Origin: a virus
Direction: 5' to 3' (one strand)
Virus record (IMG/VR): IMGVR_UViG_3300008114_000042
Location: 34,865 to 98,864 of that record
DNA: 64,000 nt
Shown here: positions 30,654 to 49,802 of the stretch, piece by piece
Position numbering within the stretch: the stretch's first letter is position 1
How the letters are laid out: each line of letters opens with the position of its first letter
Translations under genes and position numbers: made by a program
Notes under the pieces: model-generated
What the model saw: the letters and a program-made list of their open reading frames with translations, nothing else
Databases searched by the model: none
Told to the model about the DNA's origin: nothing

Positions 30654-31529
30654 TCTGGGTACAAGCACGCGACAAGGAGACAAAGGAAGAGTTCAACGCT
30701 ATTCAGTCATTCGACAACACCGCTATTGTAGTCGGGTACTTGGCAGGAATGACCGCACACAGCGAGTTGATAAGTATTAGTCTAGAGTACAGTGATGAAG
30801 ATGAAGACCTTGCAGGGGCATGACTATGACAACGGTATGTGCGTGCGCTGCAAGCGCAGTTATTTCCAGACGATAGGCACAGTGTGCGACAAGGAGAAGA
30901 AATGAATACGCTTGTATGCAGATGTAGAGGATGCACCGTGGCCTACAACGCCGGTAGACAGGATGCTGCTGATGCTGTGGATAACCTTCCCCTACTCCCT
31001 TACCAAGGTGAATGGGCAGTCAAGTACAAGGATGCTATTGAGGCAGCCTTGGGCACACCCGTCAAGCACATCACCGGAGCAGACTTAATGAGGGATAAAT
31101 GATTATTTTCATTGAGGTAGAAAAAGGGCATTCCATACGGCAGGGTGATCCCAAGCCGGGAGGCAGAGGGTTTGAGATTTGGTGGAGGAAAGATAGGGAT
31201 AACTGGTCTGACTTCCTTGGCTGGATTCCCCCAGAAAAATTTGAGGCAGAATACAACTACCACTTATCCACAGGCGATCAGGTGTTTGTGAAGTACCTTG
31301 TTGACGATGGAGTAACCGGGCATCCTGTATAATGGGGGTATGAAGATAAGCACCCGCTATCAGAAGTCAATTGACTCCTATGTCTTCCGTGAAGGAAACA
31401 TTCCCCGCAAGGACATAGCGAATCTCACCGACAAAAACCTCATCACCATCATCAAGACTTGGACACATCACACGCTCACGGCTGCTGAAATAAAGGAATG
31501 GCGTAACCACGCCAAGCATGGCTACAAAT

Positions 31530-32210
31530 GGTAGAAAAATTCCCACAAAAATTTTCAACTTTGGAGCCAGATGATTTCCAAAGATAATTTCAATAAAGAT
31601 TTTCCAAGAAAAATTTCCAGCAAAAATTTGGGAAAAAATTTTCCAAAGAAAGTTCAGGGCAGTATGCCCTACAAACGCTTCAAGAAGCCACACGAGGACA
31701 GGACAAGGAAGAGCAATGAAACCCCCACCGAACATAACAAGCAAGAGTAAGGGTACTGTAGCAGTAGTCACCACCCCTCGCCGGGTAATCAAGGAAGGCC
31801 GTCAACCCATCATAGGCGACAGTGCCCACTTCATCACGGTACAGACACACAGGCAAGCAGGCTATTGGCCCCAAGCCAAGAAACAGACTAATGATGCGGC
31901 GCAGCCGCCCACCAAGGCCCGGTAGTCAGTATTAACCCCCCTATAAGAAACATACACATATATATATACCCTGATAGAAGGTGTTGATAGCCCTGTGGAT
32001 AAGGTGTTGACAAGGGATGGATGTTACTCTACTTACAACTAGATGGTTGTGTATGGTATTAGATTGGGTGGGGTGTGTGCGCGGCAATATACTTAATCTT
32101 CGTAATCTTTATCAAAAAACAGCCTATTTCCCCCTATTTACTGCCAAAAACACCCGATTCTTGCCATATTTCCTCCAAAACAGGGTGTTTTTTGCCATTT
32201 CCCACAATCC
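31530..32210. other. largely non-coding AT-rich convergence zone with phased A/T tracts, DnaA box and ~31-bp imperfect repeats
   Basis: A/T tracts 31535-31650; TGTGGATAA 31994-32002; 'aaaac' ending 32120/32151/32181. Confidence 0.55.
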
Positions 32211-32232
32211 TTGACATTTGAGCGATTATGTG

Positions 32233-32745
32233 CTATGCCTTGACGATATCCACAGGCAGACAGCAATAGGAGTCATAGAGACAGGCTGCTTCCACTGCCT
32301 TATGTATTCTCTTATATGGGGATTTGACACTATCAGAGGTGAATAGGCTTCCTAACGCTACCCCGAAACCTGAGCCAGTAGCAGTCTCCTTCACCTCTAT
32401 CACTCCCCAATCATCCTGCTGCACTTCCCATAGCATCCCCTTAGCACCAATGAGAAGGCTTGCAGCCTCTCCCTTCTTGTTGCCAAAGGCTTCGATAGCA
32501 GCCTTGTACTGCTCTACGATACTCAGACGCAGTGTGCCATACATATCACCATCGTCAGGTGTGGGGATATCAAGGAAATCAAACAACTGCCCGTTCCCGA
32601 ATGAACCAGAGTAGCCGTAGGCCCATCCATTGTTCACTCCCACCTTAGGCCGGGTAGTCGGAACAATAACTCCCCCTCCTGATGCCCCTCTATCTCCCCC
32701 TATGTATGTACTACCATTATGGGTAAGACCTACGATAACCGTCAT
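32233..32745 (-). CDS. Ntn-hydrolase (HslV/proteasome-beta-like peptidase)
   Basis: N-terminal M-T, 'GGDR', 'K', 'GSG', 'ALGSL'. Confidence 0.8.
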   Translation of the reverse strand: MTVIVGLTHNGSTYIGGDRGASGGGVIVPTTRPKVGVNNGWAYGYSGSFGNGQLFDFLDIPTPDDGDMYGTLRLSIVEQYKAAIEAFGNKKGEAASLLIGAKGMLWEVQQDDWGVIEVKETATGSGFGVALGSLFTSDSVKSPYKRIHKAVEAACLYDSYCCLPVDIVKA

Positions 32746-33929
32746 GTGCTCCTGCCTTCCATTAAGTGGTTCGTAATATCCATTATACAGGATACCCTGC
32801 CGATACCCGAAAATCTGTGCAATATTTCTGTGCGGTTCGTAATCTATTTTCCTGCAATTCTGGGGGTCCTTCGTAAATGGAGGGTGGTGTCCGATATGGT
32901 AGGGTTTGGGAGGATTTGTGCATGAAATTTTCTTGGGCTAAATGGGCGAAATGTCCGATTTGTTAATGTGCGAAATGTCCGATTTGGGTGATATTGTCCA
33001 CAGGTTATGCACAGGGGCCGCGCCCCGCCTCACTTTTCTAGACTATGCTCACTTAACGAACTCTCCCCATCCCCGAACACCAACAGTGTGCATCCCCCCA
33101 TGAGAAAGAACACGAAGATTAGTGCGATCACTCCCCCCACGAATGTAGTAATGAAGTCATCACCCCTCTGCTGATTCATCATTGTCTCCCATCTCTACCG
33201 CCGAATACACGATGGTGAACAGCCGACTAGTGAGTTCTGGTGACTCCCAGTAGGTCCGACGAACATCATGCTTGATCGTTTCTTCCTTTGTTGTCTGTAG
33301 GTAGCGCTCCAACTTATTCGTCGCCATTGTTCCACGCCTCCGTAACGTCAGCAATAAGAATACCACGGTGGTCATAGAGATAGACTGAGGCATACTCGGG
33401 GTAGATAGAGTCAGACTCAATAGACTCTACCCAATAGACCTTATCGCCTTCCTGTACCCGGCTCCAAAACTCATCCTCATCGAATGGCCCCTGTGGGAAT
33501 GAGATGTGAGACTTGCCTTCATCATTCCACGCAAGCGAATAGCACTCGCCCATTTCTCCAAGATCGTGGACCTCGGGGTCCAGTACCCATACTGTCATTT
33601 CACTCCTTTGCTTGGTTCTATTCTACCAGAAACGGGGGCAGTTGTCAATACTAACTACCCCCGCTCTGGGACACCGACCCATACAGGCCAGCGGCGGTTC
33701 CCATCCCAAGGAACACTAATCAATCCGGCACTCAGGCCAGATTGTAGCCAGCACTTCCACCATCTGCCTACACTTTATATCTTGGTATGCTTCCGGTGTC
33801 CAAGACTCGGGATAAAACCATTCCTCAGCAGCAGTGTCCCAGACATTGCCGTCAAGATACTTGGTCTCATCCTCAACAGACCACTTGTGGGTATGGTCGT
33901 TGTATGACACGATGTAGTGATATTCCATC

Positions 33930-34244
33930 TTAAATACCTTCAATCAGATTGACGGGAGTAGTGATACGTCCACGGAAGCGACCACATGGCCTATCAAGTT
34001 GGACAACAACCTTGGTCCTATTGATCTGGACGATAGTTCCCTGCTCACCAGCAAGGTACTTGGGCCGGGTATTGGAAGTGTAACGCACCCTATCCCCTAC
34101 ATTGTAGTCAGTAGCCTTGGGAGCAAGCGCATCCATCCTACTCTTGATAGTCTGCATCATACCATCAAGGTACTCATCAAACTCTCCATTCAGAATACCC
34201 GCTGCAATAATGTAGTAGTCATCGAACTTGATCTTGGTTTCCAT
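33930..34244 (-). CDS. SH3/KOW-like hypothetical protein
   Basis: 'VGDRVRY...GTIVQINRTKVVV'. Confidence 0.6.
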   Translation of the reverse strand: METKIKFDDYYIIAAGILNGEFDEYLDGMMQTIKSRMDALAPKATDYNVGDRVRYTSNTRPKYLAGEQGTIVQINRTKVVVQLDRPCGRFRGRITTPVNLIEGI

Positions 34245-34258
34245 TTCATTTCCCTTCA

Positions 34259-34846
34259 TTAGATACCCCACGGTGGCTTCGCACCGTCACGCTTGGGGTC
34301 TGCCCCCATACGCATAAGTGCTGTTTCCAACTTAACAATAAGACGACCAGCGGGAGTCTGCCAGTAGTCGGCGGTCTCACAGGTCTGGTAGTCATAGCAA
34401 CGAACCAGATGGAGCGCTTGGTCCATACTCTCAGGGTCATAGTCGTCATAGTGACGCTGAGTAGAGGCAAACGGCTTCGACCAACGATAGGAGGGGGTCC
34501 GACCTCGCTCGCCATAGCGATAGTTGATAGACCTGTGATTCTCCTTCCAGAGCATCTTCCCCATGTTGGTCTTGTCTGCCTTGGATACCCCCAGCATATC
34601 AGCCCAATACACAAGAGCGTCAATGTGACGCTTGCTTACGATCCATGCACTCATGCCAGTTCCTCTCCATCCATCGGGACCAAGGAGGGTGTAGTTCCCC
34701 CAGCCAAACTCTTCCTCTGCCCATGACTCAATAAGTGAGATAACTTCTTCGTCAGTAGGATCAATGTCCATTTCCCGCAGGTAGGTGCGGGCATCCTCAA
34801 CGTTATAGGTAAACGTCTGCTGGGCCATGATATACTCTGGTAGCAT
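34259..34846 (-). CDS. hypothetical protein (possible fusion; second start at 34654)
   Basis: 'MSAWIV...EN.RS..YRY...CYDYQTCE...W'. Confidence 0.6.
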   Translation of the reverse strand: MLPEYIMAQQTFTYNVEDARTYLREMDIDPTDEEVISLIESWAEEEFGWGNYTLLGPDGWRGTGMSAWIVSKRHIDALVYWADMLGVSKADKTNMGKMLWKENHRSINYRYGERGRTPSYRWSKPFASTQRHYDDYDPESMDQALHLVRCYDYQTCETADYWQTPAGRLIVKLETALMRMGADPKRDGAKPPWGI

Positions 34847-35366
34847 TATGCCTCCTGCCAGTTAAAGTAGACACGGGGAGCGTGAGTAAACTCAAGTGTG
34901 CCCTGCACACCGTCAGACTTACGATTCACAACAACAAACGGAGCAACGAAACCAAGAACCTCAAAGTCCTCTTGCAGTTCTTGGGTGTTCCACTCAGTCT
35001 TCATAGTCATCCTCATCCTACTCACGGGGAGCATCGTCCATAATTTGCAGGGTACCGGAGGAAAGCAGCCATTCCAACTGTCCCATACCGTCCAGAATCT
35101 CATCAGACTCAAACTCATAGTCTGCCTCGTGCCCACCGCACTCAATGTAACCGGAGTAAATCATCACTCGTCCTCATCCTCAGGCTCCTCAACACTGTCA
35201 ATTTCGTAGTTGTCAAATGGCATAGTGTAGCCACCGTTGGCAGAGTAGGCCGACCAATTCTCGGAAAACTCAATAGAGGCAGTGTTAAGAGCCTCATCGT
35301 AGGAGTTAGCCTCTACCTCAAACGAGTCAGAGAAGTAGGCATTGACGTACACAACGTAGGTTCCCA

Positions 35367-35729
35367 TCACGCACCGCTCCAAGAGAAGTTGGAAACATCA
35401 TCGACATCAATGCTGATGTTGTCAATGTCGGAGGTATAGGAGGAGAAGTGGACCTCACCAGAGACCTCGGCCTCAATGTCATCGCAATCGAAGCCCACCA
35501 GCGGCACGGTAACGTAGCCAGAGAAGTGGAAGTCACCCTCAACGTAAATCTCCTGCGTGAGAGAGAAGCCAAAAATCTTAGCAATAGGCTCAGCATGATC
35601 CTCAAGGTCCTCAATGTTTTCCTTGAGATACTCTTCCAACTCAGCAATCATGCGGTTCTTGGTGTTCACGGTCTGTTCCAGCCGCTCAATGCGCTCAGAC
35701 ATTGCCAGCACCTCTTCGTACTCGGGCAT
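35367..35729 (-). CDS. acidic hypothetical protein
   Basis: RBS GAAAGG; own promoter. Confidence 0.6.
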   Translation of the reverse strand: MPEYEEVLAMSERIERLEQTVNTKNRMIAELEEYLKENIEDLEDHAEPIAKIFGFSLTQEIYVEGDFHFSGYVTVPLVGFDCDDIEAEVSGEVHFSSYTSDIDNISIDVDDVSNFSWSGA

Positions 35730-36050
35730 TTGTTCCTTTCACGGAGGGCGTTTCCCTCGCTTCTATAGGTCTAAGTATACCCTACTCTGACCCACAGCGC
35801 AAGAGTTTCGCCAGAAAAATCTTAGAATTTTTTGCCCAAGAAGTTCGGGATAAAATTTGTGGAAAAAATTGTAGATAAATTTTCGGGGCCGCGCCCCGCA
35901 AAATTTTCCAGAAAGATTCTGACGCACATACCGACCACGATCACAAGACAAATTTGGTGAGAGGAATCCTCTGCGCAAATTGTAATACTGCCTTGGGATT
36001 AATGAAGGACGACCCCGAGATTCTCAGGGCCGCCCTCCACTATTTAGAGA

Positions 36051-37055
36051 TTACAGGCCAGCGACCTGCTTAACAATCCCAAGGAGCCGGTTCTTCTCCG
36101 CATTCGTGGCGGCATCAAAACCAGAGGCAGCAGCCAGAACGGCGGTTGCGTCACCCTTGCGGGGGTTCCTGTACCAATCCAGTCGTTCGGTCAGGGCATT
36201 CAGGCATCCCCACGCAGTACCGGCGATCATGCCGTTAGTCTCACCAGTGTAGATAGAGTTGATCGTGTCAACCTTCTTCTCCCACTTGGAGAACGAGCCC
36301 TTAGCATCCTTGTCAGGAACCGGGTAGGCAGCGGTGATGATGTCGAAGAACTGCTTATCGCTAATCTCCTTGGCAATCATCTCAGCAGCCTGCTTGTCGA
36401 ACTCATCCATGTAGGCGTGAGCCAGACCAAGAGCCTCACGAGCAGCAGCAATACGGCCCTCAAGAGTCTGAGTGTGACGGATACGGTAGGACTGCTTTGC
36501 AGCCTTGCCACGAGCGCCAACAGCCATGTTGAGCGTGTTCTGGCAGACCACACGGACGGGGGTAACGCTGGCCTGAATAGCAAGCGAGCCGTCATGCGAG
36601 GTATGAACCAGCAGGTAAGACTTCACCTTATCACTGACACCCTTGGGGTCAAGGACAGTCTCACGCTCAAGAGCGAGGGAGCCGAACACGACGGTACCAT
36701 TCTTGATAGCGCCAGCAGTCTCCCAGCGAGCACCGTCAAGGATGTTATCACCGAAGGCAAACAGTTCCTCATTCTGGAGCACCTTGTAACGCTCGCCCAC
36801 GACACCAAGAACGTCCTTCTGAGAACGGTCAAACGGGTTGGTGCGAACGGTAGAGAACCAGTCCTTATGACTGTTGGTATTCTTAGGGAACTTGATCGGC
36901 TCAAGCCGAACGTTCCAATCGTTGAGGTGTGCTGCTGCCAGCATTTCCTCGGTAGTGACCTCATCCTCAAGGATGGTGCCCAGACCATGCCATGCAGGCT
37001 GACGCAGGGAGGCGAAGGTCGCCATATCCTCGTACTGCTCAAGCATATGTGCCAT
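36051..37055 (-). CDS. DUF932-family phage/plasmid protein
   Basis: 'PAWHGLG', 'LQN', 'SHDGS', 'RVVCQNTL', 'TAWG..NA..E..DW'. Confidence 0.88.
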   Translation of the reverse strand: MAHMLEQYEDMATFASLRQPAWHGLGTILEDEVTTEEMLAAAHLNDWNVRLEPIKFPKNTNSHKDWFSTVRTNPFDRSQKDVLGVVGERYKVLQNEELFAFGDNILDGARWETAGAIKNGTVVFGSLALERETVLDPKGVSDKVKSYLLVHTSHDGSLAIQASVTPVRVVCQNTLNMAVGARGKAAKQSYRIRHTQTLEGRIAAAREALGLAHAYMDEFDKQAAEMIAKEISDKQFFDIITAAYPVPDKDAKGSFSKWEKKVDTINSIYTGETNGMIAGTAWGCLNALTERLDWYRNPRKGDATAVLAAASGFDAATNAEKNRLLGIVKQVAGL

Positions 37056-39041
37056 TTTGTTACTTCCTTTCGTGAGGGACAATCCCTCGTTGTTGTTATA
37101 GTCTAAGTATACACGATCCGGCGCAGGTTGTCAAGAGGAAAATTCATTTTTCCTGCGATATTTTTAGTTAGTCCGTAATCCGTTTCGGGCAGGGTGTCCG
37201 GTTTGACCCAGTTTGGGGGAGGATCGAATGTCCGTTTTGCCCGTTTTGGGTGTCCGAACTGTCCGATTCTCCCCTTTTTGCTACTCTAAGTATACCGGAC
37301 TTGGAAACCATTGTCAATGTGAGATAGATCACACGGGGCGCGGGTAGGGTTAGGGTACCCTTACTCCCTATTCAGTGCAGCCTCAGCATAGAAGTCCTCA
37401 TAGCCCATCATAGGCTCATCAAAGGATGCCTTCATCTCGGCATGGTCCTCGTCTGTGAGGTCTTCCCACATTGTCTCGGGGTACTCATAGGGATCACCGT
37501 AGTAGCCGTACTGCTCATCAGTACCCCAGCCACACGACTCCATCACGAAGTCAAAATCGTCATTCATCGAACGTACCAGTCCTCATCAGAAATATTGCTA
37601 CGGGTAATGGGGGCCAGCATCTCAAAGCCCCACAGAGCGGTGGTGCGCTCGCCACACACCGGGCAAGGACCATAGGCAACGTTGGTCCAGTCCTCCCCAC
37701 GCTGGTGGATGCCAGCGAAAGGCATGGCGTTGTGGAGGCCACGACCCTCATAGGCGCACTCTACACAGTCGATAGTGGCGGGGCTGTGAACCGCTTCCTT
37801 GGTCTCATTCATAGTTCTACTATAGCATCGATGGGGGCTGTAGTCAAGTCCTGAGAGTGTGATGTGTAACACACGGGGGCGCGGGGCCTACTCGTCCCCG
37901 AAGCCCCACGAGTCAAGGGAATCCTCATCGAAATGACCCCGCATCATCTGCTCAGTGTACCAGCCTTGAGCGTCGAAGCCGTCTGAAAACTCGAAAATAG
38001 CCATTATTTTCCCTTTCTGTTGACACTACAATACCACATAATTGCTCTGGGAGTCAACTTCTGGTGTTGTGATGTCGGTCACAGGGCGGGTCGCGCCCCG
38101 CAAAAAGTATTTGAGTAGTTTTACATCATACTCAGGATGTTGGTCGAAAGGAAAGAGGGAAAGGTACCTCACATCTTTCGTCCATTCCCCACTATGACCA
38201 GTAGTGAGGAAGTTGAAGGCCACCTTTATCCCCTTGCTTGGGTGGCATATGGTAAGAGTCTTATCTCTATCTCATAGAGTGGGGTCTTACCGTTTTTTAA
38301 TTAGACAGTAACGTTGGCACGGATGCCCCGTGGGAGGGTAGAGAAGATAACGTCGTCATTGACGGTCATCTCCACGATCTTCCGACCGTTGTGCTTGTGG
38401 ATATCTAGAACGGTACCACGGAGGCCCGAACGGGAGGTACGGTAGGTGTCGCCAACCTTGACTGACTTGGGCTTGCTCGGCATATGTATTCCTTAGTGCT
38501 GTAGTGGGTCTTTCTGATGACTCAAGTATACCGGATACCGGCGCTATTGTCAAGTCACGTTTCGGTAACGCTACTCTTCGTAGTCGGGACTATCCAACAC
38601 AATACAGGGAAGCGTATCGGTATCAGATACCTCAATAGACTTAAACTCGGACCACTCATCTAACAGATGAATGATGTACCCGCTGCCGGTGGGAAACATG
38701 GAATTAATGACGTACTCACTGCCACGGATAATTACCCTGTCCCCTACTTCAAGCGAATAGACTTCTATTCTATCAATGACCTTCATGCGCACCCCCCAAA
38801 CAACGGGGTATAGAAATAGATGTGAATGTCTAGGGTTGACTTCCAGAGTGAAATCCAGTCCCCAAACTCATCCCCATCGACATAGCACAGGAAGTCGTTA
38901 TCAGTGTAGACGATCCATTTGTCCTCGTCATCATCATAGGGCATTTCATAGACGTGTGCGTTCATCCGAACCACAGCGCCAAAAAGCCGGTAGCCATGAG
39001 AACGATGTTTTCCAACAGGAAGGGGGGAATTTTAATCTTCA

Positions 39042-39287
39042 TTACTTATCCCTACTAAAACCGTTGTCGGTCTCATCAATAGTATCTTGGGCAAACCCAA
39101 TGAGGCTTGCCTCAAACTTGCGTGCATGATGAGCACAGAATTGCAAGGGAAGACCCTTCTTGTTTGCCACCCGCACCCATGCTCGCTGAATACAACGGTC
39201 GCAACGGTCCATCAAGGAAAGGACAGGGGCAGGAGGGACAGGCTCATAATCGGCGTTGTCGATAAGAGTCTGAACAGGACTTCCCAT
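39042..39287 (-). CDS. small Cys/His actinobacterial-type protein
   Basis: 'DRCDRC..RAWV...LQFCAHH'. Confidence 0.65.
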   Translation of the reverse strand: MGSPVQTLIDNADYEPVPPAPVLSLMDRCDRCIQRAWVRVANKKGLPLQFCAHHARKFEASLIGFAQDTIDETDNGFSRDK

Positions 39288-39864
39288 TAGATTTCTCCTC
39301 TCAGAATAGCAGCCTTGATATAGTTAAGGTCAGAGGTATTGTCATAGGTATACTCAAGGATTTGATTGAGCACGCTTGCCTCATCAGGAGTAACCATGAG
39401 GGTGGCATAGACAAATTCAGTATTCGGCATTACGGTGCTTGGCCTTCCTAGTATACTTGCTCTTATTACGATGGGGCTGGGCAGCATTGGACCGGCGAAG
39501 GTCCTGCCAATACTGCACTTCCTCACGGGTCTTCTTTCTTGTTTTCATCATGGTAATACTTTACCACACTTTTCGTTGGATGGGAAGAGGCAAAACGGAC
39601 ATTGGAGTGTGATGATTGTCACATTGGACCGCGCCCCGCCTCAGATTTTTACCCTACAGCACTCAACGCATCAGCAATATCATACTTGACATTCTTTAAT
39701 CCGATAGTCACAGTCTCTATGCGATCCTCTGCGTTCTCATTCACAAATGCAAGACTCTCAAGACTGTCAATGATCTTGTTGACCTCATTTGCCGCACGGT
39801 AGAGAGCGTGACGCATAGCAAACTGAGTCTCAGTAAGTTCCTTGTTAGACTTCACCGGAAATCA

Positions 39865-40257
39865 CTATTTCCTTTCATCGTTCCAGCGCTGGATGCAACT
39901 CTTGCACCTACGCCTACCATCTACATATTTTGTGTTCTCGTCATTGTATGGGTGCCCCCACTTGCAATGGGTCTTGGCTTGGTTGGCGTGTCGGCCCTTG
40001 GACACCATATCTCCAACGTTGTCAGCAGGAGAGCCTGCTCGCAAGTGCCGTGGATTCACACAGGAACGATTATCACACAGGTGCATAACAACATCGGGCC
40101 ACTCTCCATAAGTCAGGAAATATGAGAGTCTGTGTGCCTTCCAATAGTTGTATTGTCCATACCCGCCGGGATTGACATACCCTGACCACTCCCAACATTC
40201 ATCGGGAGCCCCCATGACTACCCTCGCCCAGAACCGGGCAGGAGCCTTAGAATACAT
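39865..40257 (-). CDS. HNH endonuclease (HNH_3-like)
   Basis: 'CWEWSG...GYG...AHRLSY...H.CDN..CVNP.HL...N..D'. Confidence 0.88.
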
Positions 40258-41039
40258 CTGAAACATCCAGAATCTCAAAGTCCTCAGGAGAAAACTCCTC
40301 ACGACTACGAATGTAGTCTAGGGCAGCATCCCTATTGGGGAAGGACCGCTGAAAGACGTTCAGGTAGTAAACTCTATACTGACTCATTGTTCTCACTTTC
40401 ATAGTTCATCTTAGAAGGCTTACGACAGTAGGAGCACACCCACTGTCCACTATTGGGGTCAAGTGTCCATCCATCCTTGGCACTATGACCCTTCGTACTA
40501 CCCTCACACCACGCTGTCATCGGCTTTGCAGCCTTGTAGTGATAGTATCAATGAGAGCGGAACAGCGCTGCTCAATTTCTTTGAGGTACTCCACCGCCTC
40601 CTCATCTTCACTGCACGTTCCCATGAGGTCCACAGCATTTTCCATACGGTCGTTCAGGGTGTCTGCAATGAAGTGCCAGACATCCTCCCGAAACTGAATA
40701 CTCACGGGCAAGGCGGGGGACCTTCCAATAATCTCGTAGTCATCAAATGTGGTGCCGTCGCCAGCCAACTCAACACGGCTGTTAATCTTCTCAACAGCAT
40801 CCTCCCATGAGCGGGTAGAGAATACAGGGCGACCTAGGAAGTGAACCTCATAACTCATGCGAGTGTCCCCACAAACTCTACGTCAACCAACTTGGTTGCA
40901 ATGGAAGGATGCACACCCTTGATAACGTCAGCCACGTCATGCAGGTCGTTCTCTTGGATAATGGTTCGATCCTGATTGTTAAATCGGTAAGTGATAACCC
41001 AGACGTTCATTGTGTAACCTTTCGTTGTTTCTTGGTTTT

Positions 41040-43755
41040 ATTCTAGCAGGGGGGTCTGACATTGGAGGCTTGGAAATGCTATCAAATCGGACAGGTTGTA
41101 TAACGAGATGGTAACAGAGTTATCCACAGATTTCCCAAGTTATCCACAGGTGAAAAGTTGTTTAGTACCAACAACTTTCGGCCCTCACCATGGACTACGC
41201 CCATAGCCAATAACCGTTATATCCCAACGCTTTTGGACTGCCCCATTCTCAGCCATGAATGCATCAATGAGTTCATCAGGCACATAGCCATAGACAGAAG
41301 TGCCACCAATGCTACCGTCGTGGTAGTCAGCGAACGGCTCAATGGGATCGCATACCCATTTGCCATTGAGGAAGAAAGCAATCTCACTAGAGATACCCTT
41401 GCGGCACATATGGTATTCGCTGTTCTGCACACTGATCTCATCAGCCTGCGGGTGAACGATAGTGTAAGTAGGCATTTATGCTCCAATCGCATTGTGAATG
41501 ACAGCGCCATTCTCTACGGAAATGGTCAGGGTATTGACGTAGGTATCGCCATTCCAAATCTCAATGTCGATAGTCTGGTCAGTATCGAATGACCACACCT
41601 TAGCGGTGATGGTATCGACTACTGCCTCTGCGAAATCATGCTTGGTAATCATTGTGTTTCCTTTCTACCAGCGTCCGAATGACTTGACAGGCTCACGATC
41701 CCCAAGAGCGGAGCGGAGTTCGATAGAGCCGCAATCCCGCATGGAGACTGGCGTACCGTCAATCTCAACCCAGAAACGACCCTGACGGTGCTTAGGCATC
41801 CAAGTGACGATGCCCTCCATTCCACCAGAAGTGAAAACGTGGTCGCCAACCATGAGGTCGGTAGTGCAAATGCGGATCATTTTCTTACCTTTCTTGTTTC
41901 TTTCTATACCCTCATCCTAGCAGAGGGGTCTGACATTTAGTTCGGGGGAATCGGGTGATATCGGACACCCAATCAGAACCGTTACCTAACCGTTACTTTC
42001 GGTTGAGGTAGCCCTTGTGAGGGCAATCACGACGGTCATGGCGACTGTCGCAACCAGAGCAGAGAATCTGAGTCATTGTCTTTCCTTTCTTTCTATGCCA
42101 TCAGTCTAGCAGGGGGGTCTGACATTCTTGGCCTCAGAATGTGTGCAAAACGGACACACGCAGAAAAAAGTTTATGTGATGAATCTCACAGGACGGGCCG
42201 CGCCCCGACCCTCAGGAGTTGTTTAATCCCAACACTTATTCTCCCCAGAAGTCGTCAAGCAGTACCCGGCAGTCGTTGCACAGGTGTCGTTCGGTGCGAG
42301 TGTTGGCAACAATTCCAAGCGCAACAGTCTCTACCTGCATCCAGCCAACAGCATCGCAACTGTTGGGACTCACTGTTGTCTCGCACACGTTGCAAGTGAT
42401 CCAGTCTATACGCTCATGCCACCTCACAAAATATCCTCTTCCTCTTCGCACTCACCTTCAATAGTCAGGTCGGGGTACTCATAGCCTTCACCGAGGTAGT
42501 AGCAGTAGTAGTCGAATGCTGATTCGCAGAATGCGGTCTCAACCAAAACCCCATCACGCTTGCTAACGATGCTATGCATGACTAGAACGGTGCCTTCCAG
42601 TATTCCTTGCCGTCTACGACAACGTAGTCAGCGTCCTCAATGGGCATGAGTGGCTTAGTCTTGGTCGGCTCATCAATGAGAGTAGTGAAGTGCTTGACGT
42701 TGGCGGTAGGGACATAGATGATGTCCATATCCTTATTGTCTACCTCCCAAGAGATGTAGGCAGCCTTGACGATCAGGCTATCCTCCACAACGTGAGCATA
42801 GACGCCTGCGGTACCGTCCTGAAAGAAAATCTGAATACGCATTGTGTGAATCCTTACTTGTGAGAAGAGCAGTGAGCGTGCCCATGCGAGCACTCGAAAT
42901 AACCGAAGTCGATATCCTCATCCTCAAGCATGAGGGAGGCATAGACGTTTTCCTCTTCCTGACGGGCGAGGACGTATGAACATTCATTGTCCATATACTC
43001 CCATGAAGAGCCACAGCAGCAGCCGCCCTCATTGAAGTCAAAGTGATGAGAAATGTTAGACATTAGCGTCCATCCAATCCCACACGTCAGCGATGACGTG
43101 CGTGTTGCGAGTGAGTGAAGAGCAAGTACCCATGTAGGTTGCAGAGAAGCGGCGGGACTCCTCAACGTGATCGGCGTAAACCTCAACGTCATACTCCCCA
43201 TCAGAGTACGGGCCGAACACAAAAAGCGTGAACGGCAGCCGACCGAGAGCGGTGTCGTGATAGATATGGAAGGTTGGGAGGGTCATTGTATAGCCTTTCG
43301 TTTGTTTCTTAGTTTCATTGTAGCAGGGGGGTCTGACATTCAGACAGGCGAATGTCCGTTATGTCGCATTTCGCCTAGTGTGACAAGAATCACAATGGGG
43401 GTCTGACAGTCGGAACTTGTACGACCCATGGCGGGGACGGACAATGAAAGTAAAGGTAGTGCCATACATGGTGAATGACTCCACACGGTACTGAGTATGC
43501 TCACGCCCATGGCGGCTAGATGCCTTGAGGACACGGTAGTTCTTACGCATTACCGTCCATCCCCCACATCTGCTCCCAATAGTCCTCATCCTCGAAGTCA
43601 TCCCAAGCCTCACGGCTCTGAATGATGAGTTCGCACTCAGGCAGATCGAAGATATCAATGTCTGTGGTGATGCGACCACAGGCGCTCTTGACTGTGACGA
43701 AGGTTGACATTCCTTGTCCTTTCTCTTGATCGAAGTCTAGCAGAGGGGTCTGACA
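41040..43755 (-). promoter_or_regulatory. five TGTCAG-N10-TAnnnT promoters (PafBC/RecA-NDp-like)
   Basis: 41040-41061, 41914-41935, 42103-42124, 43317-43338, 43734-43755; degenerate copy ~43387-43408. Confidence 0.8.
41120..41148 (+). promoter_or_regulatory. two perfect DnaA boxes
   Basis: TTATCCACA at 41120 and 41140. Confidence 0.7.
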
Positions 43756-43756
43756 G

Positions 43757-44155
43757 TCACCGTGACCGATGGGCACGATTGCGTTCATTCTTGCATAGGC
43801 GACAGGTCTTGTCCCCACGCTTGTTGTGATACCAGTTCTCAGGCATCCATTCATGGCCCCGCACACAATGGGTCTTGTTCTGCCATGCAGCACGGCCACG
43901 GGTGATCATGTCGGCGGTATTGCTCAGATTGGACCCCTCCTGCAAGTGACTAGGGCGAACGCATCCACGATTGTCGCAGGTATGACGAACAAGGGTAGGC
44001 ATCTCCCCATAGTAGAGAGCATAGACAAGCCTATGCGCTCTATAGGTTTCGCCATTCATCTTGATCCTTCCATATCCTGAAACAAACTTAGATCCAGTCC
44101 ACTCCCAGCAATCGCCAGAGGTGTCTACCTTGTCCAGAATGGTGCTAATGTCCAT
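43757..44155 (-). CDS. HNH endonuclease (HNH_3-like)
   Basis: 'CWEWTG...GYG...AHRLVY...HTCDNRGCVRPSHL'; leaderless after TGGTATAAT. Confidence 0.88.
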   Translation of the reverse strand: MDISTILDKVDTSGDCWEWTGSKFVSGYGRIKMNGETYRAHRLVYALYYGEMPTLVRHTCDNRGCVRPSHLQEGSNLSNTADMITRGRAAWQNKTHCVRGHEWMPENWYHNKRGDKTCRLCKNERNRAHRSR

Positions 44156-44403
44156 AGTGACCATTATACCATCCTTTAGACAAGTTCGGGCACAAGCGAA
44201 AGAAGACTGCCCTCCTCGCCCAATGTTTCTACGTTTGCAACCCTGCCATAGAAACACACATGGTCAGTAGGGTCACCAGCGGTAACCACACGAACAGACT
44301 TACCAGAGGTAAGATGGACCAAGTAAACGAACATTGTCTAACCTTTCTTTCTACCCTTAGGGTACCACAGGTAGGTGCCAGCCCCTATTGAAGATTTGAT
44401 GAG

Positions 44404-44475
44404 CGGAACCAACGGGGATCGAACCCGTGTTACCACCGTGACAGGGTGGCGTGTTAACCTCTACACTATGATTCC
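44404..44475 (-). tRNA. tRNA-Asp (GUC)
   Basis: ccacc-ctGTCac-ggtgg. Confidence 0.92.
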
Positions 44476-44476
44476 T

Positions 44477-44551
44477 TGGCTGGCATGGGAGGATTCGAAC
44501 CTCCAACCTTTCGATTAACAGTCGAACGCACTGCCGTTGTGCTACATGCCA
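44477..44551 (-). tRNA. tRNA-Asn (GUU)
   Basis: ttcga-ctGTTaa-tcgaa; encoded CCA. Confidence 0.92.
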
Positions 44552-44556
44552 CAGAG

Positions 44557-44628
44557 TTGGGGTACATGGATTCGAACCATGAATGACAACGTATCAGATT
44601 GTAGTGATGACCTTTTCACTATACCCCA
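44557..44628 (-). tRNA. tRNA with GAU (Ile) anticodon on a Gln-like body
   Basis: tggggta/tacccca acceptor; acaat-ctGATac-gttgt; A73. Confidence 0.7.
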
Positions 44629-44633
44629 TGGAG

Positions 44634-44705
44634 AGCCTAGAGAAGGAATCGAACCCTCAACCAACGCATTACAAGTGCGCCGTTCTACCATTGAACTACC
44701 TAGGC
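44634..44705 (-). tRNA. tRNA-Thr (UGU)
   Basis: gcgca-ctTGTaa-tgcgt. Confidence 0.92.
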
Positions 44706-44710
44706 AAGAG

Positions 44711-44781
44711 TGGAGATACAGGGATTTGAACCCCGAACGATTGCTTGCAAAGCAACTGTGATACCTTTTCACCATATCCCC
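44711..44781 (-). tRNA. tRNA-Ala (UGC)
   Basis: ttTGCaa loop; G3:U70. Confidence 0.92.
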
Positions 44782-44798
44782 GTCGTCTGGGCCGCTAG

Positions 44799-44869
44799 TG
44801 GGGGCACAGGGAATCGAACCCCGATCTGCTGATTAAGAGTCAGCGGTTTTACCGTTAGACTATACCCCC
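44799..44869 (-). tRNA. tRNA-Lys (CUU)
   Basis: gctga-ctCTTaa-tcagc. Confidence 0.92.
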
Positions 44870-44874
44870 GAAGT

Positions 44875-45305
44875 GTGTGTGGTAGGAATATTCTCAGGCT
44901 TCCCTACCTTCCCGGTGACTGGCCTATCCCTTGCGGGTGCTACTGAGAGCCGGGGGTTCAAGGGGATTACTATAGGCATTGGTGGCGAGAACCTCATTTA
45001 ACATTGAACGTGTCACTATTTGTACCTACTACCCTTGTGTTTTGGGGTTTCGGGGACTAGGCTAACCCGGTCTAACCGGAGCGTTCGTTCCACCCTTCTG
45101 AGTACCATTGCCACTACGGCTTTCCTCAGTTTTCCCAAGTTTGTGAGCGGATTCTTACCGCTTTCAGATTTCGGTCTGTGCGTGCCTAGCGTTTCTAGTT
45201 TCGACTGGCGCATCCTGTGCTTTCCAATTCCCAACTAGTGCTTCGGGGCTTTCAGACTCCCAATCTGCGCTTCCTAGCGCTTCTGGATACTCTCTATTTT
45301 CTTAT
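44875..45305 (-). ncRNA. candidate large structured ncRNA upstream of tRNA cluster
   Basis: Own promoter, no credible ORF, many hairpins and GAAA/GCAA loops. Confidence 0.6.
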
Positions 45306-46497
45306 GTCTTAAGAGTACCACACTTTGGTCTGGTTTGCAAGTCCTGAGGCTTATTTGCTGTGTGAGGCTCATCACATTTTCTGTGCTTACTTGCTCACGC
45401 AGGCTCATCCTTGACCTTGCTCACTCTCTATTTTCTTATACCTTAAGGTTACCACGGATGGGGGCAGAAAGCAAGTTGAAAATGCATACAAAACGGACAA
45501 CTTTATGTGATGTGTGTCACAACGGGTCGCGGCCCCCGTTAATATTCCTGACTATACACCTGCTCAGCAATATCCTTGTATTCAGCCTTCATTAGATACC
45601 CCTGCTCAATAAGCATATCCAGAGCGCTCAGTACCATTTCCCATGATCCACGAGGCATCTCTACTCTAACCACAATATCTTCCTTCTCCATACCCTTGCG
45701 GAATCAGCGTAACGAAACCATCGTTGGCATCGTCATTAGTAAAAACAGCGTTGATAAAGCGTAGGCCGCATGACTCGTCATACCAGTCTACGATATCCTT
45801 GAGGTTGGGAGCATATGTCTCATAGTCCCATTCCTCCATTTGCCTAACCTGCTCATCATCCATAGACAGGTAGATTTTATGACAACCGTCAAAATGCATA
45901 CCCTTCGCATTACGGAGCATTTGCTCTACCAGCCACCAGCGGTCATCCATTGTATTCCTCCATTGCCTGAGTGTATGAGAAGTCTATTACCTCATACTCT
46001 CTAATAGCCCCATCATTGCTATTGTATGTCTGAATGAATAGTGGGCGGCAGTCAAGGCATCCCGCTACTCCACACCCGCCGATTAGTGTGCGTTCGATAG
46101 TCATTAGTAGTACCGTCCTTCATTCATCATTTCATCGGTAGGGTAGTGGTAAATAGGATGGGCGCAAAGCCATGCAGACATGCCATGCTCGCAGATATCC
46201 TCCTCAGGATCGGGAGGATATTCCATATTATCCATTTGATATGCCCCCAATAGTCCACGGTAGTCATTATCTACAGACTCACAAGGGAATTCGTCAGTAA
46301 TCATTAGAATACACTCCCACACACGAGACAGATAGCCTTATACCTAGGTTCGATATCCTCGCAGCCGATACACGGCTCCCACGGTAGGTCGGGGAAATAC
46401 TTATAGACAAATTCTTCGACAGCCCTCTGGCCCTTATCTTGATAGATAGCGTAGCAAACGTCATCCAGACCGATAGTGTCATCCATGATTATTTTCC

Positions 46498-47244
46498 TTA
46501 TTTCTTTGATCGTGAGAATGAGATATTGGCCTTATTATCAACGCATAGACGGCAGACACTACAGGCGCTACCCTCGGTGCTAATAAGGGGAATTTGCTTA
46601 CGCTGCTCAGGACAGATAGCACCGGGCCTGCCGGTAATATCCTTGACAGCCGCCTGACTTTCTGCAAAAGTCTCAGCAACGAAAGCGACCTTAATTCCAT
46701 AAGTACGGTAGAGCATATCTGCTACCGGCTTATTATTGGGGTCGCCACTAAAGTAAAGCGACAGATTAGGCAGATTAGCCTTGTGCAGCCTGACGGCAGC
46801 ATTAGCATTACGGGTATAGACCCAGAATTGGATATGCGGGTACAGGATGATAATGTTAATCCATGCCTCAATATAGGTTTCAGAGAAAAAGTCCCCGTCC
46901 CAATGGATGCGATAAATACGCTCAGAGCCCTTTTTCTCAGACTTAGTATCGAATTCCCAGATAAGGGCGTTCAGCATATCGAAAGTGTCGATAAGGTTGG
47001 CATCCTTAAGGGCATTGTAATTGTGGAGCATGGCAGCCCCGACACCCTTAAAAAGGTTTTCCAATTTGCCAGCGTAGCAAATTAGTTCGCAATATTCGGT
47101 AGCACCGACGCAGGAATAGTCAATTCCATTGGCAAGGCCCATAGTATTTGAGAAAGCGGCCTGCTTTCCATTTTTAGTAACGCAGGAAGCCACTTTCCGG
47201 TCATTAGAAGCGGCTAGGACGGGGAGCATTGTTTTCGTAGTCAT
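46498..47244 (-). CDS. Gp88-like Cys-rich protein
   Basis: 'SCVGAT..C...CYA', 'RIHWDGDF', 'WVYTR', 'CP...C..C..C'; leaderless ATG 47244. Confidence 0.75.
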   Translation of the reverse strand: MTTKTMLPVLAASNDRKVASCVTKNGKQAAFSNTMGLANGIDYSCVGATEYCELICYAGKLENLFKGVGAAMLHNYNALKDANLIDTFDMLNALIWEFDTKSEKKGSERIYRIHWDGDFFSETYIEAWINIIILYPHIQFWVYTRNANAAVRLHKANLPNLSLYFSGDPNNKPVADMLYRTYGIKVAFVAETFAESQAAVKDITGRPGAICPEQRKQIPLISTEGSACSVCRLCVDNKANISFSRSKK

Positions 47245-47856
47245 AGGTGTAACTATACAGGATAATATGGGTATGGTCAAGGGGCAAAACGGACATTGGC
47301 GTGTGAGTAATATCACAGGGGGCGCGGCCCCGGCAGGGTAGTCAGGAGGGTAGTGTAGCAAGGTAGCAGGTAACAAGGTCATAGGGTACAAGGGTGTAGA
47401 ACACAGAGTGTCCATGGTCCCTTACCACTACAGCCTCATGGTCAGCGAAGAAGGGCACAAGGGTAGCGCTAGCACGGTCATGCTTAAAGAACACAACGGT
47501 ACAGTTGCGAGGGTAGTTGTATACCTGAAACGACGTATGCTCATCCCCCTCTGGGAGGTAGTGCTGTACCCTACCTACCCTAGTAGTCATATCCACCACA
47601 GCACCACATGCAGCCTTCCTTGTGGTCATCCTCATCCTGTACCTTCTCTTCTTCAATGTCAAGGTAGTCCATGATTCCATCAGTAATGGAGTAGTACCTA
47701 TCCTTGCGATGACGGATTTCGTTAGTCCATTCTCCATCACCCTTGTACCGTCGCCATGCTACGTCGGTATGCCAGTTAATGTGTGCCTCACCATGCTTGT
47801 CCTTGACGTATGCTATCTGCACACGGGCAGGGCGAGTCTTATCAGTCTTGCTCATA

Positions 47857-48321
47857 CTAGTCCTCCCATGAGGGTACTACGGTAGTGGGGATACCATGCT
47901 CTGCCCAGAGGGCCAGCACAGCAGGGTTGTCATCAATGGCATGGATCACATCGTACTCCTGCTGTATGCGGTGGAGTATGTCACTCTTGACATCGTAGTC
48001 AGGGCGACCGTCCTTGTCCCCTCGCATGAGCATGAGGTCTGACGGTACACCATGAAGGGCGAGCCACCATGCTGTTGCATGACGGTACATAGCACGCCTA
48101 GCAGTAACGATGATGATGGTAGTACCTAGCATGTGTGCCCTATGCACCTGATCCACCACATGGGCATGAGCAGGCACGTTGACGCTCTCACTATGAAAGG
48201 CATGGAAGTCCTTGTGCCACCCCTTAGGCTTGGGGGTAGGGGGAAGGATGTAGTGCCTGATACCACTCACATCGGCAAGGGTACCGTCCATATCAACGAT
48301 CATAGCCTGTCTCTTACTCAT
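47857..48321 (-). CDS. HAD-family phosphatase (PNKP 3'-phosphatase-like)
   Basis: 'IVDMDGTLA', 'VTAR', 'MR...D.R.D..VK', 'IDD'. Confidence 0.88.
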   Translation of the reverse strand: MSKRQAMIVDMDGTLADVSGIRHYILPPTPKPKGWHKDFHAFHSESVNVPAHAHVVDQVHRAHMLGTTIIIVTARRAMYRHATAWWLALHGVPSDLMLMRGDKDGRPDYDVKSDILHRIQQEYDVIHAIDDNPAVLALWAEHGIPTTVVPSWED

Positions 48322-48520
48322 AGTCTAAGACTACAGCATGGAGAGGGATAAGTCAAGTTGTGATGGTGTGATGATTGTCACAGACAATATAGGCGCACTA
48401 AACGCTGACGCATAAAGGACAAATAGGACGTATCGTACAAATAGTCTCAAAATTAAAGTTTGTCGATATTAATAAACAAAATAGTGAGAAGTAATAAAAA
48501 TAGTGTGATATAATGGGTAT

Positions 48521-49048
48521 ATGATAACATGCACCCGATGCAAGAAGACAAAGGCACCGAACGATTTCTACAAGAATAGGAATAACAGCACCGGGTTTCA
48601 CTCTTGGTGTAGAGAATGTGTGTCCGACAACTACTATGAGCGTAAGGGGGCGGGGAGGGATAGGAAAAAGAGAAACTATCCTGTTGGCGGCGAGAAGAAG
48701 TGCCCATTGTGTGAGAAGAACAAGCCCCTGTCAGAATATCCTAAAAACAATAACTATTGCTCTTCGTGCAAGAAAGACTACGATAGGAAGATAAAGACTT
48801 CTCGTAGATGGAATATATCAATAGATACGATAAACGATATGTATTCTCATGGATGCGCTGTATGCGGGAAGACGGAGGGGAGAATGTGCATTGACCATGA
48901 CCATGCGTGCTGTCCGGGCCAAGGCTCGTGTGGCAAATGTGTGAGGGGAGTGCTATGCACAAAATGCAATGCAGCACTTGGAATGGTAGATGACAGCATT
49001 GAGAGACTGCAAGCGCTTATCGCTTACTTGGAAATACAAAAATTTTAA
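48521..49048 (+). CDS. recombination endonuclease VII-family (HNH) nuclease
   Basis: 'CAVCG...IDHDH..C....SCGKCVRGVLC..CN..LG'. Confidence 0.9.
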   Translation: MITCTRCKKTKAPNDFYKNRNNSTGFHSWCRECVSDNYYERKGAGRDRKKRNYPVGGEKKCPLCEKNKPLSEYPKNNNYCSSCKKDYDRKIKTSRRWNISIDTINDMYSHGCAVCGKTEGRMCIDHDHACCPGQGSCGKCVRGVLCTKCNAALGMVDDSIERLQALIAYLEIQKF

Positions 49049-49624
49049 ACTTTGCCACGGGCGGCCTGTACACGGGCAGTGCTCTGGGTATACGTGTTGA
49101 CAACCCTGACATCAGGGTGACGTGGTACCCCACCCGCTTCTACATCCTGAGGAACCCGACGGTCAACACCATCGTGACTGTCGTCGAATTTGAGTGCGAG
49201 GTCCGATGAAACTTCCCAGATGGAAGTGGAGTGCCCGTAGTCATGCACCGCAGTGCCACCAAGCGTGGACTGGCAGTAAGCATTCAGGCACCGTAAAGTC
49301 CAAGTTAAAAGTTATGCGCATGACCCCTTTTAGGTAGTTTCAACTACACTTTTAGGGGTTTTTGTGCTACACTATGCTTATGAGAAAACTACTTATGACG
49401 ATAGCCCATCCCCCAGCGCTACCCCTTCTCCAAGTGCTACATTGACGTACATGGGGCGAAGCGTGTTGCGATGCTTGCTCCCTACCAGATAGGCACACTT
49501 TAATAACAGAAGCATAACATTCAGTCATTTACAAAAGTTTGACCGGACAAAGTTTAGCCAATAAGCGCTTACATCTTGTGTTTTCCGTCACACAGGTGCT
49601 ATAATGATGCTTGTTATATAACAT

Positions 49625-49670
49625 GGTAGGGCTAAGGTAAGCAGGGAACATGAGTGCTCTTAGCCCTACC
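49625..49670. terminator. 12-bp stem hairpin
   Basis: ggtagggctaag / cttagccctacc. Confidence 0.5.
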
Positions 49671-49802
49671 ACTACAAAGACTCTACCTAAATAAACGAAA
49701 CTACATCCCTCTCCTGATATTTATACAGTAAAGAGACTACCGAACGTAGTGAGGTAGTAAATGATACAGCCACAATTGCTTGCCTTGCGAGCATAGTATA
49801 GA

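Follow-up and report, generated by a model that had tools for sequence, protein, structure and literature searches.

Host-type regulatory sites at the small-gene cassettes of a freshwater phage: putative inputs from CRP, PafBC, BldC and DnaA

Bacteriophage promoters can carry sites for transcription factors of the host, as in lambda, which is subject to effects of DnaA and CRP, and in cyanophages with NtcA and PhoB boxes. In actinobacteria, the PafBC consensus derived from chromatin immunoprecipitation (ChIP) is tGTCgg(N10)tA(N3)T (PMC8635444), and a second report describes single-stranded DNA as the signal that activates PafBC (PMC11804915). Schumacher et al. showed binding of BldC to head-to-tail repeats of 9 bp, with a whiI site TGTGTCCGAATTGCTCGGATTG, an optimised site CAATTCGGACAATTCGGACA and the protomer consensus AATTXXXX(C) (PMC5859096). 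Phage GIL01 uses host LexA boxes (PMC4551915). Here we analyse a stretch of 64,000 nucleotides (the window), which is the final 64 kb of the 98,864-bp IMG/VR virus record IMGVR_UViG_3300008114_000042, a record with 114-bp terminal repeats. Our subject is its leftward arm (31367–48400, minus strand), in which about 45 small genes and six tRNAs are split into short transcription units according to the open reading frame (ORF) model, Pfam matches and strand skew.

On balance, and by comparison of sequences, we lean towards a reading in which host CRP, PafBC, BldC and DnaA act on the cassettes of this arm through putative binding sites. The four site types match four conserved actinobacterial regulators which all co-occur in one candidate lineage and none of which is encoded by the phage, hence host regulators are the most economical reading. 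The preliminary description of this DNA had proposed a panel of CRP-type, GlnR/MtrA-type, DnaA and PafBC-type inputs, next to TGTCCG repeats without an assigned factor. Three of these inputs are kept, the GlnR/MtrA input is rejected, and the TGTCCG repeats bring in BldC as a different fourth input. We infer the binding events, the direction of their effects, their timing and the host, as well as the labels "early" for the arm and "lytic" for the phage. Expected numbers of sites are derived from 100 dinucleotide shuffles of the 98,864-bp genome, and the enrichment of the site classes is confined to the minus-strand arm (about 31.4–48.4 kb). Related phage DNA is represented by 20 IMG/VR loci retrieved by the DUF932 protein, 15 of them non-redundant (296 kb), with a GC content of 36–39% in most and 48% in one.

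CRP-type boxes of the form TGTGA-N6-TCACA occur as nine perfect copies versus 0.16 expected, all within 37318–48382 and none elsewhere in the genome; boxes of this type had been noted in the preliminary description. With one further copy that has one mismatch (37858), the boxes start at 48367, 47302, 45506, 45361, 43379, 42175, 39608, 38068, 37858 and 37318, and the very first promoter of the arm already has such a box. The distances from box centre to the first base of the -10 element are 31, 41, 41, 41, 51, 52, 52, 62, 64 and 74 nt, with a Rayleigh R of 0.91 at a period of 10.5; the boxes lie on one helical phase relative to the -10 in both classes of promoter described below. Related loci hold 68 copies of the palindrome versus 0.4 expected, and their boxes share the mean phase seen in the phage (R 0.69, n=32, p ~4e-8). 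This phasing, together with the placement only upstream of promoters, favours sites cooperating with RNA polymerase over loose decoys. Beyond the arm, about 1.4 kb between the divergent arms (48400–49800) are without a confident gene and show a near-CRP box at 49577 and scattered TGTCCG words. Within the arm, at 44875–45540, two canonical promoters with CRP-type boxes (45340, 45474) lead into some 430 nt that show no credible gene, after which the six-tRNA cluster follows.

The second class of sites consists of hybrid promoters TGTCAG-N10-TAnnnT, located on the minus strand at 41040–41061, 41914–41935, 42103–42124, 43317–43338 and 43734–43755, each 20–30 nt before a GAAAGG ribosome-binding site (RBS); a truncated copy is seen at 43398–43408 (minus strand). 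These are the five promoters of PafBC-type layout noted earlier, and their extended pattern TGTCAGACCCCYCTGCTA occurs in 5 copies at 41040–43755 versus 0.02 expected. The spacing between TGTCAG and TAnnnT is exactly 10 nt in five of five, the -10 reads TA(G/C)nnT, and none of the five has a TTGAC-like hexamer at -35. They thus share the geometry of the ChIP-derived PafBC consensus, including its invariant GTC; the older strict form TGTCRGTG-N8-TAnnnT has 0 matches in the phage. On the sense strand of the related loci the motif is found 111 times versus 1.8 expected (antisense 7 versus 2.5), and variants with a spacing of 9 or 11 nt 4 times and once versus 1.6 and 1.7 expected, respectively. 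In two complete relatives the TGTCAG promoters are gathered in a single block of about 10 kb, all on the same strand, and the exact box TGTCAGACCCCCCTGCTA is present in relatives of 36–38% GC, too. LexA boxes are not enriched in the relatives. The word CGACACGCC is repeated just upstream of some TGTCAG promoters in two related loci (L004, L012).

The TGTCCG repeats of the preliminary description need to be divided. The bare hexamer is not enriched (34 versus 46 expected), and it is the longer unit TGTCCGTTTTG that stands out, with 11 copies versus 1.5 expected when one mismatch is allowed, all in the arm. Single units TGTCCGWTTTG on the transcribed strand are located between CRP box and promoter at 47285–47295, 45489–45499, 42146–42156, 41083–41093 and 39591–39601 (minus strand), with a looser copy TGTCCGATATC at 41957–41967. 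A gap of 6 nt between CRP box and unit is seen three times, and a distance of 32 nt from the start of TGTCCG to TGTCAG also three times. Two untranslated leaders are filled with 9-bp tandem units. One array at 37195–37270 (plus strand, thus AAAWCGGACA on the transcript) lies between two promoters and shows the 9-bp spacing at 37251/37260 and 37229/37238; a second set (starts 32888, 32952 and 32976; 32888–32990, plus strand) follows the GC hairpin at the far end of the arm. Clade-wide, a spacing of 9 bp separates 27 of 43 neighbouring TGTCC units, while many units in the phage are single, and ATGTCCG is found 57 times versus 8.4 expected on the sense strand of the relatives. The unit logo of the phage, AAAWCGGACAT, compared with the BldC operator CAATTCGGACA, conforms to the AATTXXXX(C)-type unit, and the unit equals the whiI site TGTGTCCGAATTG and the optimised site CAATTCGGACAATTCGGACA of BldC. 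Hence the TGTCCG unit, in its wording and its 9-bp tandems, matches the BldC operator, and BldC is the putative fourth input.

The leader after the promoter at 37317 (37165–37285, minus strand) folds to a long hairpin (-35 kcal/mol, z -2.2), in which GGGGAG is paired with CCUCCCC and the CGGACA repeats are enclosed. A looser relative of this hairpin, which also has AUCCUCCC, is seen at 32880–33000. The 37165–37285 hairpin may represent a small RNA whose sequence includes a tract like an anti-Shine-Dalgarno.

DnaA boxes TTATCCACA, too, are present in excess (6 versus 0.76 expected in the phage, and 88 versus 3.7 on both strands of the relatives), in line with the earlier observation. Two perfect boxes (starts 41120 and 41140, span 41120–41148, plus strand) are 20 nt apart and precede the TGTCAG promoter at 41061 by 59 and 79 nt. 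Three more (30976, 31264 and 31994; 30976–32002) surround the convergence of both arms, and a box TTGTCCACA at 32994–33002 (plus strand) stands beside the second set of BldC-type units. Within the clade, boxes of a pair are spaced by 11–12, 21–22, 32–34 or 41–42 nt. The relative of 48% GC holds nine TTATCCACA boxes in 200 bp (L021:3713–3909), with a layout like that of a replication origin.

The block at 41040–41148 had been described as a stack of four kinds of site. Two DnaA boxes, one TGTCCG unit and one TGTCAG promoter are indeed stacked there; the alleged GTNAC element is imperfect (GTTAC-N6-GTTAT). More generally, GTNAC-N6-GTNAC boxes are at chance level, with 2 matches versus 1.35 expected in the phage (41981–41996 and 38554–38569) and 4 versus 4.8 in 296 kb of relatives, and the GNAAC variant (GlnR/MtrA/AfsQ1-type) shows no excess in the relatives (3 versus 4.8 expected). 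A nitrogen input via GlnR/MtrA was therefore dropped. The CRP-, DnaA- and PafBC-type sites, on the other hand, are kept across the 15 related loci. The promoters of the relatives carry the boxes in mixed combinations, and the stacking order of two DnaA boxes, CRP box, TGTCCG unit and promoter is repeated there, for example just upstream of DUF932 in locus L013.

Possible readers of these sites are found in candidate hosts, for which we searched genomes of 1.3–1.5 Mb and 44–49% GC of the class Actinomycetes; by size, GC content and habitat we take this set, the likeliest type of host, to be "Ca. Nanopelagicales"-like. K-mer host matching gives a slight preference for CRP-bearing small genomes. 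One CRP of 230 amino acids is encoded in 21 of 21 small Actinomycetes genomes; it is orthologous to M. tuberculosis CRP (Rv3676), and the recognition helices of the two are the same. A tandem WYL pair (pafBC-like) is present in 14 of 14, and recA is preceded by TGTC(A/G)G-N10-TAnnnT in 18 of 18, most commonly as TGTCAGTGGCnCCTGCTACCTT, which has CTGCTA in common with the phage. BldC is above the NCBIfam cut-off in 6 of 6 small CRP-bearing genomes, and its DNA-reading segment is identical to that of PDB 6AMA. Pairs of TTATCCACA 10–12 nt apart flank dnaA in both candidate host groups, the second being the Microbacteriaceae. In the latter the recA motif is exact in 25 of 30, with aGTCAGACC in an Aquiluna metagenome-assembled genome (MAG), WYL pairs are present, and the small members have TTATCCACA around dnaA. 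The word GACACGCCG stands just before the recA LexA box in Microbacteriaceae and may be the end of the upstream gene. Marginal HTH_Crp_2 matches in this family turned out to be DtxR and GntR proteins.

The sequence ATGTCCGWTTTG is found in nine copies in CRP-bearing small genomes, versus zero for the control, and in 0 copies in three Luna-type genomes. The nine copies map to three syntenic places: the leader of a gene for a MerR-like protein of 71 amino acids, a site upstream of an ECF-type sigma gene, and the interval between phoH and an SLT-like gene. By NCBIfam cut-off and comparison with PDB 6AMA, the MerR-like protein is BldC, thus ATGTCCGWTTTG lies in the leader of bldC itself. The box before the sigma gene is located about 110 nt upstream (L137:789–800, L138:781–792 and L140, in host genomes G284, G074 and G300, which are small and of freshwater type), and the BldC-type box of the bldC leader is seen in L132–L134. 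These sites are a hint of a small conserved BldC regulon in non-sporulating actinobacteria.

Several observations weigh against host readers. The host is deduced only from weak k-mer likeness and the coherence of the site set, and the nearest RecA relative is encoded on a contig binned in an Aquiluna MAG. Luna-type Microbacteriaceae, as far as searched (five genomes for CRP), are without cNMP-binding proteins, true CRP, BldC or an excess of the palindrome. Since the genomes searched lack both regulators, the CRP and BldC readings would fail if the host were of this type. The contig in question has a GC content of 0.42 versus 0.56 for the MAG, and other relatives are binned in Methylococcus, Beijerinckiaceae, Bifidobacterium and Lishizhenia MAGs. 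Given the GC mismatch and this scatter over unrelated MAGs, we treat the binning as noise and an Aquiluna host as rejected. A phage-like contig of 57 kb (G006:C2, locus L028), with GC 0.42 in an "Aquiluna" MAG of GC 0.56, is probably mis-binned. In addition, TGTCNG-N10-TAnnnT is not in excess in Streptomyces phages BillNye and Braelyn. These closest cultured relatives lack the promoter class and are therefore not a ready model. The isolated "Ca. Planktophila" phages have 39 kb and belong to another family.

Further points of this kind lead to the strongest of the alternatives, which we consider unlikely, namely that the boxes have readers made by the phage itself, proteins with an unrecognised fold. 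In that case the palindrome would be the operator of a phage regulator, and the TGTCAG promoters would be served by a phage sigma adaptor or appropriator, comparable to AsiA and MotA of T4. Perfect, dense and genome-restricted sites are typical of phage operator sets, and CRP-bearing small genomes hold only 0–1 perfect palindromes each, so that no host promoter has a site as perfect as those of the phage. The PafBC-type box of the phage is kept far past the host consensus (GACCCCYCTGC), which would also be expected of a reader specific to the phage or after a recent duplication of cassettes. Some 40 small proteins of the arm are without an assigned family in Pfam and PHROG scans, many small phage proteins having no known fold, and the phage encodes a WhiB, the only transcription factor that these scans recognise among all proteins called in the genome. 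WhiB proteins bind region 4 of sigma factors.

However, four unrelated site types each fit the consensus of a different conserved actinobacterial regulator, and all four regulators are present in one candidate lineage. The host sites at recA, in the dnaA flanks and at bldC moreover share secondary features with the phage (CTGCTA, box pairs 10–12 nt apart and 9-bp repeats). That the first promoter of the arm already has its CRP-type box also speaks against a reader made by the phage. The preliminary description had stated that no such regulator is encoded in the window. This holds for the whole genome, in which six-frame searches and Pfam/PHROG scans recognise no CRP, PafBC or DnaA homologue above cut-off. 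Six-frame searches gave no match for cNMP_binding and Bac_DnaA_C (E <= 0.1) or for HTH_BldC (E <= 0.01), either in the phage or in the relatives searched along with it; the latter numbered four or five per search, of which three or four are complete by estimate. WYL gave nothing in five relatives and a sub-threshold match of 13.6 bits only in the phage. In six-frame searches of the phage, HTH_Crp_2 gave nothing at E <= 1; Sigma70_r2 gave only a match of 13.4 bits in the phage, which is below cut-off. No HTH, WYL, CRP or BldC domain is thus found above cut-off in six-frame searches.

Regarding the palindromes, about 20 actinobacterial genomes of 1.0–1.5 Mb (G045–G336) keep a CRP orthologue with 0–1 perfect TGTGA-N6-TCACA, compared to 5–20 in large genomes of the class. 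The class-wide tally includes seven unpublished genomes (G042, G050, G059, G065, G067, G071 and G298), on which no specific claim rests.

A different possibility, raised already in the preliminary description and to our judgement quite improbable, is that the sites are chiefly decoys which soak up host CRP, BldC, DnaA or PafBC as the phage genome multiplies, and which thereby reprogram the host. Perfect consensus sites, better than any in the candidate hosts, would suit such a role, as would the tandem BldC-type arrays in the non-coding leaders 37195–37270 and 32888–32990 and the cluster of nine DnaA boxes in one relative. Titration is difficult to reconcile with CRP boxes that, in either class of promoter, keep strict phase with the -10 that follows, and with TGTCAG words that are strand-specific, always 10 nt from the -10 and about 25 nt from the RBS. 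Also, each kind of site amounts to only about 10 copies per genome. The decoy alternative of the preliminary description is thus weakened by the strict phasing and by the placement of sites only upstream of promoters.

The arrangement of the cassettes deserves a closer look. Most gaps between minus-strand genes follow the grammar described earlier, i.e. hairpin, box or boxes, promoter, GAAAGG RBS and short ORFs. Canonical promoters (TTGACN or TTGCNN, 17–18 nt, TAnnnT) are predicted on the minus strand within 33620–48356, with -35 hexamers starting at 48356, 47280, 45474, 45340, 38553, 38057, 37847, 37317, 37134, 35802 and 33648; an extended -10 promoter is predicted near 39558–39586 (minus strand). 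The GC quasi-palindrome GGGGCGCGRYCC occurs 7 times versus 1.2 expected, always in the arm, and lies directly 5' of the CRP-type box on the minus strand. Its copies at 33015, 35886, 38088, 39626, 42195, 45524 and 47319, with a variant at 37877, form short hairpins that close the preceding unit. Folding yields -8 to -9 kcal/mol, mostly not more stable than shuffles, and only at 35886 is the hairpin flanked by runs of A and T in the manner of a classic terminator. The motif is nearly absent from the relatives (1 of 20 loci); the GC tag varies between lineages.

A 57-nt unit comprising TGTCAG promoter, leader, RBS and ATG is duplicated at 41007–41063 and 43283–43340 with 90% identity, which points to recent cassette copying. 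The DUF932 orthologues have a canonical TTGACA-17-TATACT promoter in the phage and a TGTCAG promoter in the relatives. The duplication and this promoter swap suggest that cassettes move and swap, as do the promoter/stem-loop (PeSL) cassettes of T4-type phages. One may go further and suppose that the repeats are mainly recombination handles of such mobile cassettes and that the likeness to host sites is secondary, a view to which the duplicate, the DUF932 promoters, the variable GC tag and the overall plan as in PeSLs (PMC2839356) lend support, but which leaves the four matches to host consensus sequences, the phasing and the retention of sites across GC differences of more than 10 points unexplained, so that we think it a poor substitute for host regulators as the explanation, although it is compatible with these rather than opposed to them.

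If host regulators do act on the arm, it would be a chain of short transcription units, each opened by a control cassette and read by host RNA polymerase. Two classes of promoters would be used, namely ordinary -35/-10 promoters and -26/-10 hybrids TGTCAG-N10-TAnnnT, which sigma adaptation by PafBC would make readable. A CRP-type palindrome on one face of the helix may serve as an activator-like input, BldC-type units may provide the input of a repressor that oligomerises on DNA, and in one cassette the pair of DnaA boxes would be a further input, so that cassettes would depend on different host signals. Because PafBC is activated by single-stranded DNA, the five TGTCAG cassettes may come on with a delay or in response to damage; they would fire once infection or DNA damage has given rise to single-stranded DNA.

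A bolder version of this model compares the arm to a logic board. The small-gene programme of a probably lytic phage would be wired to cyclic AMP-CRP, PafBC activated by single-stranded DNA, BldC and DnaA at once, the PafBC cassettes acting as a single-stranded DNA switch, and the course of infection would vary with the energy, damage and replication state of the host. We put this forward tentatively, as a possibility that we would not yet expect to hold in full. Borrowing of single host regulators by phages is known; four combined host-type inputs over a dozen cassettes would show that abundant lake phages read host physiology. As far as literature searches show, these would also be the first PafBC-style promoters reported on a virus. 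Streamlined freshwater actinobacteria are hard to handle genetically, and the phage would, if the model is true, supply natural promoters of compact size on which sigma adaptation, CRP, BldC and DnaA could be studied in these organisms. The site set is also a clue to the host, as it makes sense only in a host with CRP and BldC.

As to the phage itself, its genome encodes DnaE, DnaB, primase, RecA, WhiB, GP88 and DUF932 according to Pfam and profile scans. DnaE shows 53% identity to those of Streptomyces phages; a closer cultured phage was not found, nor did the phages collected in GenBank contain a near match at the DNA level. Among the called proteins, Pfam scans detect no integrase or repressor families, therefore the phage is probably lytic. 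The stretch is carried by DNA sequencing runs from lakes and freshwater, some labelled "fungus metagenome", and there are no RNA runs among the sequencing-run matches listed. The ORFs of the arm are small, with a GAAAGG RBS. Pfam recognises a PNKP-type HAD phosphatase as the first gene of the arm (47857–48321), GP88 (46498–47415), an HNH endonuclease (43757–44164) and DUF932 (36051–37055), all on the minus strand, and an Rfam scan finds tRNAs only.

Compared with described systems, the TGTCAG promoters resemble PafBC-dependent promoters (RecA-NDp, recA P1-type) of Mycobacterium and other actinobacteria, which work by sigma adaptation (PMC8635444), in having a GTC hexamer 10 nt before TAnnnT without a -35 element, and the same form precedes recA of the candidate hosts. 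They differ in being phage-borne, in five near-identical copies with a conserved spacer, and in preceding small genes of unknown function; their PafBC dependence is putative. Searches of the literature on PafBC or RecA-NDp in connection with phages did not find a description of PafBC-type phage promoters.

The BldC-type units share with the BldC operators of Streptomyces (whiI and smeA-ssfA; PDB 6AMA and 6AMK; PMC5859096) an AATT-like tract followed by CGGAC, head-to-tail tandems of 9 bp and a position of about -50 to -80 relative to the promoter. In contrast to these, the phage units are mostly single beside a CRP box, the arrays are in transcribed leaders, and the putative host is not a sporulating streptomycete.

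With CRP/GlxR sites of actinobacteria and class I/II CRP promoters of E. coli, the arm has in common the perfect 16-bp TGTGA-N6-TCACA located whole helical turns upstream, yet no site of the candidate hosts is as perfect as those of the phage. With the -10 taken to start at -12, the phage boxes are centred near -43, -53, -64, -74 and -86, an offset of 2–3 nt from the positions in E. coli.

PeSL cassettes of T4-type phages (PMC2839356) are similar in combining a stem-loop and a strong promoter between small non-essential genes and, as the 57-nt duplicate and the promoter swap suggest, in their duplication and shuffling. They are without a stack of host-regulator sites and have a single promoter class. 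The hairpins of the phage described here are weak. A literature search on panels of host-factor sites in phages did not find a description of one. Finally, LexA control of GIL01 (PMC4551915) and the cases of lambda and the cyanophages all involve sites for host transcription factors on phage promoters. While one factor is used there at one or few promoters, here four site types occur in mixed combinations over about 15 cassettes of a probably lytic phage.

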